From contig JAJRTK010000459.1 in NCBI GenBank assembly GCA_024278345.1, positions 1-49,649 of the forward strand: a stretch of DNA of 49,649 nucleotides, given 5' to 3'. The notes beneath the pieces are model-generated. The model did not search any database. It had not been told where the DNA came from and saw only the letters and a program-made list of their open reading frames with translations. Positions 27,814-32,971 of the stretch are shown here, one piece after another. Position 1 is the stretch's first letter. The number at the start of each line of letters is the position of its first letter. The DNA comes from a bacterium (GTDB lineage Bacteria; CSSED10-310; JAJRTK01). A program made the translations under genes and the position numbers.

Positions 27814-27928
27814 GAGACCCGCCCGCAACGAAAGGGCACGGAGCGCCTGCGACCGCTGATTCCGGTTCTCCCCGAAGAAGGGCGTACGGGCCGAGAGACC
27901 CGCCCGCAACGAAAGGGCACGGAGCGCC
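27814..27928 (+). repeat. 34-bp exact direct repeat x2
   Basis: GAGACCCGCCCGCAACGAAAGGGCACGGAGCGCC at 27814-27847 and 27895-27928. Confidence 0.85.
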
Positions 27929-31098: not shown

Positions 31099-31334
31099 AT
31101 TCCTCCCCCAGGATTCTTGGGGTGTCGATTCTTACCCGGAACTCTCATCAGGGATCGTAACGAGGCAGGCTGAGGGGTAGTTCCACCAAGGACAAGGAGA
31201 GGCGAACACCGGCGGCATAGTCTTTTGCTACGTCGAGGATCCGACCGACGAGGACGCCGGTGAAAACGACGGGCAAGGCACCGCGGTAGAGTCGTGATGA
31301 GATATTCGGGCCTGCGCCCCACAAGGGCGGTTTT

Positions 31335-31556
31335 CTATTCTGTCTTGCTTTTCTCTTGGAACTTTCCGTATTTCTTGGCAAATTTTTCGATGCGGCCCGC
31401 CCTGTCGATAAACTTCTGGCGGCCAGTAAAAAATGGGTGGCAGGTGGAGCAGATTTCGATTTTGATTTCGGGAAGCGTCGATCTCGTTTCGACGACATTT
31501 CCACAAGCACAAGTGATGACACACTTCACGTAATCTGGATGAATGGACTTTTTCAT
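31335..31556 (-). CDS. rpmE: 50S ribosomal protein L31 (zinc-binding type A)
   Basis: [23 protein letters not shown]. Confidence 0.97.
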
Positions 31557-31617
31557 ACTGGTTTCCTCATATTCCACCAAGCGCCCCAGAAGCGCTTTCC
31601 TCAACAGCTGAACCATG

Positions 31618-31707
31618 GAGCGGCTCCGGTACCGTGAGGAGCTAGCACATTTCGAGGGTTGTATTACTGCTCGTAAACGAGCGGCTCCGGTACCGTGAGG
31701 AGCTAGC
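31618..31707. repeat. 29-bp direct repeat flanking a 32-bp unique insert (CRISPR-like single unit)
   Basis: GAGCGGCTCCGGTACCGTGAGGAGCTAGC at 31618-31646 and 31679-31707; period 61 bp; internal GCTCC/GGAGC palindrome. Confidence 0.85.
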
Positions 31708-32971
31708 TGTTCATGGTCTCGATAAATTCATCGTTCGTTCGTGTCTTACTCAGACGATCAAGAATAAAAGTCATGGATTCCTCCGTATCCATCGTACTGA
31801 GGAACTTCCTGAGAATCCAAGACCGATTCAATTTCTCCGGACTGGTGAGGAGCTCTTCCCGGCGGGTTCCGGAACGGCAAATATCGATGGCGGGCCAAAC
31901 CCGTTTGTCCGCCAGCCTTCTGTCCAGATGCAGCTCCATGTTGCCAGTTCCCTTGAACTCCTCGAAGATAACATCGTCCATTCGGCTACCGGTATCGATG
32001 AGGGCTGTGGCGATGATTGTCAAGCTGCCCCCATTTTCGATGTTTCTGGCCGCCCCAAAAAATCGCTTTGGCCCCCGCAAGGCGTTCGTGTCGATCCCAC
32101 CGGTCATCACTCTTCCACTGGCAGGCTGAAGCGTGTTGTGGGCACGAGCCAAGCGGGTGAGGCTGTCGAGCAGAATCACAACGTCCCGACCGCATTCTAC
32201 CATGCGCTTTGCCTTCTCGATCACCATGTCCGACACAGCGACGGAGCGGTCCGCTGGCTCGTCAAAGGTTGAAGAAATCACCTCCCCGCGCACGGAGCGC
32301 CGCATGTCCGTGACTTCCTCCGGCCGTTCATCGACGAGAAGAACCAGAAGTACGACTTCTGGATGATTCAAAGCGATGGCGTGAGCTATCGCCTGAAGAA
32401 GCATCGTTTTCCCGGTCCTTGGCGGCGAGACAATCAGACCGCGCTGTCCCTTTCCCACCGGGATGAAAAGATCCATAACCCGCGTCGATAGCCGATCCGG
32501 CGCACACTCCATGACCAGTCGCTCTTCGGGGTAGAGAGGCACGAGGTTGTCGAACTTCACCTGCTTGCCACGTCTTTGTTGCGGTTCCTCGAGATTGACA
32601 TTCTCCACGCGGAGCAGGGCAAAATATCGTTCATTCTCCTTTGGAGGACGCACCAAGCCCGCGATGGTGTCTCCAGTCCGCAACCCGAACTTCCCAATCT
32701 GAGACGGAGAGACATAGATATCGTCTGCTCCCGGCAGATAGTTGGAATGGGAATTGCGAAGAAAACCATATCCCTCGGGGAGCTTTTCCAGGACACCATC
32801 GGCGTAGATCTGGCCGTTGCTGTCGCTCTGGGCCTGAAGGATCTGGAAAACGAGCTCTTGCTTCCGCAAGTCACCGATCCCCTCGAGCTCAAACGAATGA
32901 GCGATCTCCGTAAGCACGGCGATACTCTTGGATTCCAAGTCCGAAATCCGCAGTACGTTCGTCTTTTCCAT
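31703..32971 (-). CDS. rho: Transcription termination factor Rho
   Basis: [47 protein letters not shown]. Confidence 0.98.

Follow-up and report, generated by a model that had tools for sequence, protein, structure and literature searches.

Contig JAJRTK010000459.1 of assembly GCA_024278345.1 (hereafter the window, meaning the whole stretch of 49,649 nucleotides that was analysed) comes from a bacterium of the lineage CSSED10-310, and it carries at the stop codon of rho, the gene for transcription termination factor Rho, a repeat-insert-repeat unit in which two identical 29-bp sequences enclose 32 bp (31618-31707). We conclude that this unit is probably the fixed scar of a single off-target integration by Cas1e-Cas2e, the adaptation proteins of a type I-E system of CRISPR (short palindromic repeats that are clustered and regularly interspaced) and CRISPR-associated (Cas) proteins, and that it has probably no function. 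The conclusion draws on the anatomy of the unit, on the genes of a type I-E module in the same assembly, on the recurrence of the unit's geometry elsewhere in the genome, and on the empty sites and self-derived inserts found at sibling units. The source is a metagenome-assembled genome of 6.06 Mb in 550 contigs, 87.9% complete with an estimated contamination of 2.1%; contigs are cited below by C numbers, the window contig being C400.

A solitary repeat-insert-repeat unit at the rho stop codon

The two copies of the direct repeat, at 31618-31646 and 31679-31707, are 100% identical over 29 bp and lie 61 bp apart from start to start; neither they nor the insert are assigned a strand. Copy 1, on the side of the ribosomal protein gene rpmE, shows the internal inverted repeat of the sequence, with arms GCTCC and GGAGC of 5 bp each and 10 nt between them. 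Copy 2 repeats copy 1 and contains the rho stop codon TAG (31703-31705, minus strand) together with the last two bases of the final sense codon. The insert, or "spacer," occupies 31647-31678. Its G+C content of 13/32 (0.406, or 40.6%) falls in the lowest 2.8% among random 32-mers, the genome as a whole having 59.3%, and it shares 16% identity with the adjoining 32 nt on either side, which makes it unrelated to its flanks. An earlier note, made from the letters of the window, had described just such a structure—an exact 29-bp duplication holding the stop codon and a palindrome around an unrelated insert more AT-rich than its surroundings—and that description was confirmed.

How unusual is this arrangement? 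Across the 6.06-Mb assembly the 29-mer occurs at these two sites alone, even with up to three mismatches allowed, and the insert sequence occurs once. No third copy of the repeat lies within 400 bp when as many as nine substitutions are tolerated, and Tandem Repeats Finder reported no array of 61-bp period at the unit. An exact 29-mer that recurs 61 bp away cannot be a product of chance, and the repeat-insert-repeat observation is confirmed as far as the assembly goes.

Several ready-made categories were tried and rejected. A tandem duplication or minisatellite does not fit an insert that is unrelated to the 32 nt preceding copy 1 and to those following copy 2, nor does a canonical CRISPR array fit two repeat copies with none elsewhere and a repeat that overlaps the rho stop codon. 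Engineering was considered on account of KpnI, NheI, and NcoI sites in or beside the repeat; it was set aside, these sites being absent from the sibling units and the assembly being environmental. The core of the repeat (31624-31643 and 31685-31704) has a 16/20 match inside rho at 31835-31854, 150 bp upstream with the reading frame kept, where the encoded peptide LLTSPE resembles the post-stop reading LLTVPE, probably by chance. An internal duplication from that part of rho was also rejected; the 16/20 match is too short and is broken mid-way.

Where might the insert have come from? It had no match in the phage, viral_contigs, or genome_contigs collections, and among plasmids it gave 13 partial matches at chance level, the best with an expectation value (E) of 9. 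The 29-mer repeat likewise had no match in genome_contigs, and the inserts of four sibling units described below (C252, C486, C255, and C239) had none in viral_contigs (0/4). The earlier note had named a match to an attachment (att) site or prophage remnant as one of the findings that would refute its reading; neither the assembly nor any of the four collections yielded one.

Units of two geometries and the CRISPR-Cas systems of the genome

How widespread are such units? We scanned the source genome for pairs of exact direct repeats, each 20 bp or longer, that are separated by 18-70 unrelated bases, have flanks on both sides, and lack a third copy nearby. The scan returned 44 candidate pairs, which reduced to 29 solitary units; one proved to be the cut-off end of a true array on C296, leaving 28. 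Six of the 28 have a period of 60-61 bp, 12 have a period of 70-75 bp, and the other 10 are of scattered geometry.

Within the shorter period class, a 29-bp duplication around a 32-bp insert (29+32, period 61) occurs at C252:30284-30373, C364:10355-10444, and C486:488-577 as well as in the rho unit (C400:31618-31707). The two units of period 60 are close variants, with 29+31 at C167:172-260 and 27+33 at C457:18185-18271. The C364 unit and the C167 unit are each located within an interspersed element of many copies. The sequence of the repeat differs at each of the six sites, and no extra copy of it is present within 400 bp of any of them.

After mismatch-tolerant extension, 11 of the 12 units of period 70-75 have a duplication of 34-41 bp around an insert of 29-38 bp. 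Three are 37+35 (C85:4617, C255:9404, and C297:5272), and single units are 38+34 (C291:4274), 39+35 (C326:11662), 35+35 (C254:10009), and 34+37 (C239:2167); the one on C291 adds 72 bp within a 1632-codon open frame, which stays open. Four further units (C405:2600, C262:2151, C111:15680, and C495:6079) have copies of 37-41 nt that differ by 2-3 mismatches and look older. The misfit of the class is the unit on C36 (23+48). Several of the solitary units lie at gene borders, as on C297, where the unit contains the end of a minus-strand open frame of 1029 codons.

Which CRISPR-Cas systems accompany these units? Contigs with Cas1 and Cas2, of which there are several, were first found by Pfam models and then typed by NCBIfam. 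A type I-E locus lies at C243 (1-6232), with open frames throughout: Cse2 (60 bits), Cas7e (287 bits), Cas5e (178 bits), and Cas6e (58 bits) stand beside Cas1e (284.5 bits; cut-off 215.6) and Cas2e (72.5 bits; cut-off 33.15). The earlier note had made its proposal depend on the lineage having an adaptation module of this type, and one is indeed encoded here. Elsewhere, C296 encodes a type I-C Cas1 (480.5 bits) and Cas3; C280 encodes a type I-B-like set made up of Cas8b-like, Cas7b, Cas5b, Cas3, Cas1, and Cas2; and C377 encodes a Cas1 fusion of 676 residues. Three arrays, with repeats of 37 nt and periods of 70-78 bp, lie at contig ends of C71, C280, and C296, and the geometry of the longer class of units matches them. 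A relative from the same phylum (G006) supplies the counterpart for the shorter class: its Cas1e is 60% identical to that of C243 and is encoded beside 17 repeats at a strict 61-bp spacing. Neither unspecific duplication nor errors of assembly would be expected to give the two narrow period bands of the solitary units, one of which coincides with the period of I-E arrays and the other with the periods of the 37-nt-repeat arrays of this genome.

The I-E locus and the rho unit lie on different contigs. An interspersed element with 231 copies on 172 contigs is specific to this genome, and because both C243 and the window contig carry two copies of it each, their sequences argue for membership of one genome. 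Short interspersed repeat families are unusually abundant here, the top 22-mers having 100-231 copies on up to 172 contigs (C400, C364, and C243 among them), and the fragmentation into 550 contigs probably arises because many contigs end in such elements.

Are the sibling units insertions? For three of them the genome holds a comparison. The element that harbors the C364 unit has a copy on C445 that consists of the upstream sequence, one repeat (28/29 identical), and, directly joined to it, what comes after the second repeat in C364; it is thus an empty site. The repeat of the C167 unit forms the final 29 nt of an element that has about 300 similar copies, and C167 is the one place where a 31-nt insert is followed by a duplicate of this end. 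For the C326 unit (39+35) there is a paralogue on C234 in which adjoining blocks 92-96% identical surround one repeat and no insert, and the BLAST alignment of the two breaks exactly at the unit, where the 39 bp align twice. Some inserts also have a recognizable source within the genome. That of C85 equals C79:7639-7673 (35/35), and that of C291 matches C366 at 33/34 positions and also matches the end of C271. Both of these self-derived inserts belong to the longer class, and two cases yield no consistent protospacer-adjacent motif (PAM). None of the six inserts of the shorter class has a second copy in the assembly.

What do the target sites have in common? The type I-E Cas1-Cas2 complex prefers sites that can form cruciforms. 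When ranked among random 29-mers of the genome, all six repeats of period 60-61 belong to the quartile with the most structure (0.001-0.25), whereas the seven exact repeats of 34-39 nt in the longer class lie outside it (0.29-0.97). The rho-unit repeat, folded as DNA, reaches -4.4 kcal/mol and the 14th percentile (0.14). The repeat on C486, which closes an open frame, resembles a terminator in that a GC-rich hairpin precedes a run of T; it agrees with the I-E repeat of G006 at 18/29 positions in register, a score reached by 0 of 5000 random windows. The remaining five repeats of the shorter class, including that of the rho unit, score 12-14 against a null mean of 10.8. Among the seven exact repeats of the longer class, two resemble a native repeat: C291 at 21/37 (to C71) and C326 at 20/37 (to C296), with p ~0.001 each.

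Off-target integration as a probable origin, and its competitors

How would the rho unit have arisen? The ancestral site would have held a single copy of the 29-bp hairpin-forming sequence, starting two bases before the rho TAG. Cas1e-Cas2e bearing a 32-bp prespacer would have made two staggered strand-transfer attacks, on opposite strands, at the borders of this 29-bp stretch; gap repair would then have copied the 29 bp on each side of the insert and lengthened the rho-rpmE spacer from about 85 to 146 nt. Because the duplicated stretch contains the stop codon, Rho would have been left unchanged, and the event may well have been neutral. On the same account the rho unit would share its origin with the five other units of its class, and Cas1e-Cas2e of C243 would be the enzyme responsible.

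The earlier note had proposed a fixed neo-CRISPR unit made by off-target I-E integration. As to origin, the proposal is strengthened by the 29+32 geometry at three other unrelated sites, by the near variants 29+31 and 27+33, and by the one site with a paralogous empty site; the part that implied action as a CRISPR is not supported. Nor is its parsing of the unit into a 28-bp duplication and a 33-nt spacer headed by a PAM-derived G. A 28-bp duplication predicts an exact 29-bp repeat in about one quarter of events, yet the duplication is exactly 29 bp in five of the class's six units, which makes 29+32 the real geometry here.

A number of results weigh against an origin by I-E integration and need to be set beside those in its favor. 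Some concern the system itself. The assembly contains no I-E array or native I-E repeat (the array scan detected 37-nt repeats only): the 478 bp between cas2e and the end of C243, where the contig ends in an interspersed repeat, hold no array, and a blastn-short search of the assembly with the G006 I-E repeat gave only chance matches of 11-15 nt. Cse1 and Cas3e were not found in the assembly either, although the Pfam model for Cse1 also missed its Escherichia coli control. In the G006 array (L120), moreover, 28 nt are conserved and the 29th is variable, whereas the duplication in the rho unit spans 29 nt. Others concern the target. The rho-unit repeat has no significant likeness to the I-E repeat of G006 (12/28, p ~0.31); the pattern shared by five of the 29-mers is marginal (score 108 against a null of 97.8, standard deviation 6.2, p ~0.06); and a preference for repeat-like targets is no general rule in this genome, because only two of the seven exact 34-39-nt repeats are native-like. 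The rest concern the rho locus. Neither the assembly nor the phage, plasmid, viral_contigs, and genome_contigs collections yielded a protospacer of the insert, so its PAM is unreadable. No empty site, with one repeat and no insert, was found among relatives of which the nearest genomes are of the same phylum and the best metagenome Rho C-termini, among the matches listed, are 64-66% identical. The junctions, finally, are those of the assembly, no sequencing run being listed for 31300-32000.

Could a process unrelated to CRISPR have produced the unit? Template switching during replication or microhomology-mediated repair, with 32 nt copied from another place, or else an unknown integrase of small inserts, would make the 61-bp period a coincidence, and we regard this as improbable, though less so than the other alternatives. 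It draws on the same gaps just listed—a rho unit with neither protospacer nor PAM, nor an empty site among the metagenome Rho relatives in the matches listed, and a repeat not significantly I-E-like—and on the solitary units of other geometry (29+18, 22+29, 49+44, and 98+40), which imply that other duplication processes act in this genome. Such processes do not lead one to expect that 18 of 28 units should fall into two narrow bands, 60-61 and 70-75, that are the periods of a relative's I-E array and of the genome's own 37-nt arrays, or that exactly 29+32 should occur at four unrelated sites. Template switching in particular predicts a donor copy of the insert, and the 88%-complete assembly has none. 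No enzyme other than Cas1-Cas2 is known to insert about 32 bp and duplicate about 29 bp in doing so. Casposons and transposons, which are kilobase-sized and carry a transposase gene of their own, leave target-site duplications that are much shorter, 2-15 bp.

An artefact of assembly, in which a small loop in the assembly graph yields a structure present in no cell, seems very unlikely. The setting invites the suspicion: the assembly is in 550 contigs and 88% complete, it is rich in short interspersed repeats that break contigs, and no sequencing run is listed for the junctions. Neither the 29-mer nor the insert occurs outside the rho locus, so there is no repeat by which the graph could be confused. 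An artefact, besides, would not produce 29+32 four times over at unrelated sites and a geometry of about 37+35 at eleven further ones, nor would it give inserts that match other loci exactly, and the paralogue comparisons show clean insertions with intact flanks.

Equally hard to sustain is a present function for the unit, whether as a minimal CRISPR processed from the rho-rpmE mRNA into one guide RNA or as an RNA structure that regulates rpmE. The unit does lie on the transcribed strand between two co-oriented genes, its repeat copies are still identical, and its insert looks foreign in composition. Processing by Cas6e is not expected because the repeat is unlike the I-E repeat, at the 12/28 level already given, and has no other copy in the genome. 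As to structure, the 175-nt region folds not significantly better than its shuffles (z = -1.62) and has no Rfam match at E up to 1. The minus strand of the rho-rpmE spacer holds no terminator-like site, the scan's single match being on the plus strand at 31315-31329, and no promoter-like sites were found in the region. In 14 relatives the stretch between rho and rpmE shows nothing comparable to the unit.

Integrative elements at gene ends restore the 3' end of their target gene, and the duplication here does restore the end of rho with its stop codon, so the unit could in principle be what a deletion left of a site-specific element, its 29-bp copies being attL and attR cores; with a mere 32 noncoding bp between the copies that match nothing, no trace of an integrase or mobile element between or beside them, and the same geometry at other sites left unexplained, this is the most far-fetched of the alternatives.

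Beyond the rho unit, does the genome as a whole record off-target integration? On balance we incline, with much less assurance than for the I-E origin of the rho scar, to see in it a natural record left by two or more Cas1-Cas2 systems that integrated off target repeatedly, made up of six units of I-E geometry and about 11 of the geometry of 37-nt-repeat type I systems. The events would have taken place at gene ends, terminator-like hairpins, and interspersed elements, with some of the inserts derived from the genome itself, and the I-E module, for which the assembly holds no array, may integrate mainly or only off target.

Known systems and the rho-rpmE neighborhood

How does the rho unit compare with integration events already described? 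When Cas1-Cas2 of the E. coli I-E system are overproduced, off-target integration into the chromosome is reported (Nivala et al. 2018, as cited in PMC7054753, PMC11788318, and bioRxiv 10.1101/148544). The idea that such events can seed new arrays, or neo-CRISPRs, is credited in the citing passages to Nivala, Shipman, and Church (2018, Nat Microbiol), and one passage that cites the work describes the natural evidence as circumstantial and from two other species only. In what these passages relate, the rho unit resembles the E. coli events in its spacer-sized insert, in the repeat-length duplication of ordinary chromosome, in the presence of an I-E module in the cell, and in its 61-bp period. 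It differs in being natural, found in the assembled consensus of an uncultured organism from a small phylum and not in cultures that overproduce Cas1-Cas2, in having about 16 sibling units of two geometries, and in its duplication of 29 bp, not the 28 bp that the earlier note assumed.

A second parallel comes from Pyrococcus furiosus, whose Cas1-Cas2 carries out full-site integration in vitro at non-CRISPR plasmid sites one repeat length apart (PMC6698737). The likeness lies in the paired, opposite-strand integration one repeat length apart at sequences that are not repeats; the setting there is a plasmid assay with a 30-bp repeat system and with sites that share several positionally conserved bases of the repeat. 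Here, by contrast, significant likeness to a repeat is found in one of the six repeats of the shorter class and in two of the seven exact repeats of the longer one.

Set against the I-E array of G006, the rho unit has the 61-bp period, a repeat of I-E length with an internal inverted repeat, and an insert of I-E length. Unlike that array it consists of two repeats and one insert, has no leader and no adjoining cas genes, and has a repeat that takes in a stop codon, occurs nowhere else in the genome, and is no more like the array's repeat than chance allows. Transposons and casposons also duplicate their target on both sides of the insert by staggered strand transfer and gap repair; unlike in their case, 29 bp are here duplicated around 32 noncoding bases.

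What would such a record mean? Off-target integration is a known kind of event of which natural examples are scarce, and the rho unit would add one. A search of a limited body of literature turned up no account of a single genome with many natural off-target units. The interest lies less in the rho scar than in the presence, in a single genome, of about 17 units attributable to at least two systems. The units bear on whether off-target integration occurs and becomes fixed in nature; on the birth of new CRISPR arrays and repeat families; on the DNA features that attract each integrase; and on the cost of adaptation machinery to the host, given that insertions here spare genes, as at the rho stop codon. 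If the genome is indeed a natural record of this kind, it would capture the first step in the de novo birth of CRISPR arrays in the wild and would provide a natural data set on the site rules and cost of off-target integration. For annotation the units carry a warning, in that solitary repeat-insert-repeat structures are neither arrays nor assembly noise.

The genes around the unit are readily identified. The gene rho (31703-32971, minus strand) encodes a protein of 422 aa that scores 665.6 bits with NCBIfam NF006886 (cut-off 315) and 659.9 bits with TIGR00767; it is the longest minus-strand open reading frame of the window, and its frame is intact despite the insertion. Downstream, rpmE (31335-31556, minus strand) encodes ribosomal protein L31 of 73 aa (NF000612, 105 bits; cut-off 70), with a translation that begins MKKSIHPDY. 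From the rho stop to the rpmE start there are 146 nt, 61 of which are the insert and one repeat copy. An in-frame ATG at 31614-31616 (minus strand), directly after repeat copy 1, would lengthen the frame of rpmE, which would then have 93 codons; the likely start is that at 31556, preferred for the GAGGA motif upstream of it and the usual N terminus of L31.

Are there close relatives in which the locus can be compared? Among the 41 genomes searched, the nearest share the phylum at best, and the phylum numbers 14 genomes counting the source. The last 80 aa of Rho found at least 579 relatives among metagenome contigs, the best of the matches listed being 64-66% identical. In 14 of the 15 relatives' loci inspected, rho is followed by rpmE. 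Their rho-rpmE segments range from 41 to 365 nt, including about 20 coding nt (170 nt in the source); they are not alignable, and nothing in them resembles the repeat or the insert. Within the source assembly itself there is a second rho-like sequence at C11:35556-35777, with 76% DNA identity to the rho of the window, which may be a paralogue or contamination. The window also contains a second solitary direct repeat at 27814-27928, exact over 34 bp (42 bp with two mismatches) and separated by an insert of 39-47 bp at a period of 81, which falls outside both classes of unit.

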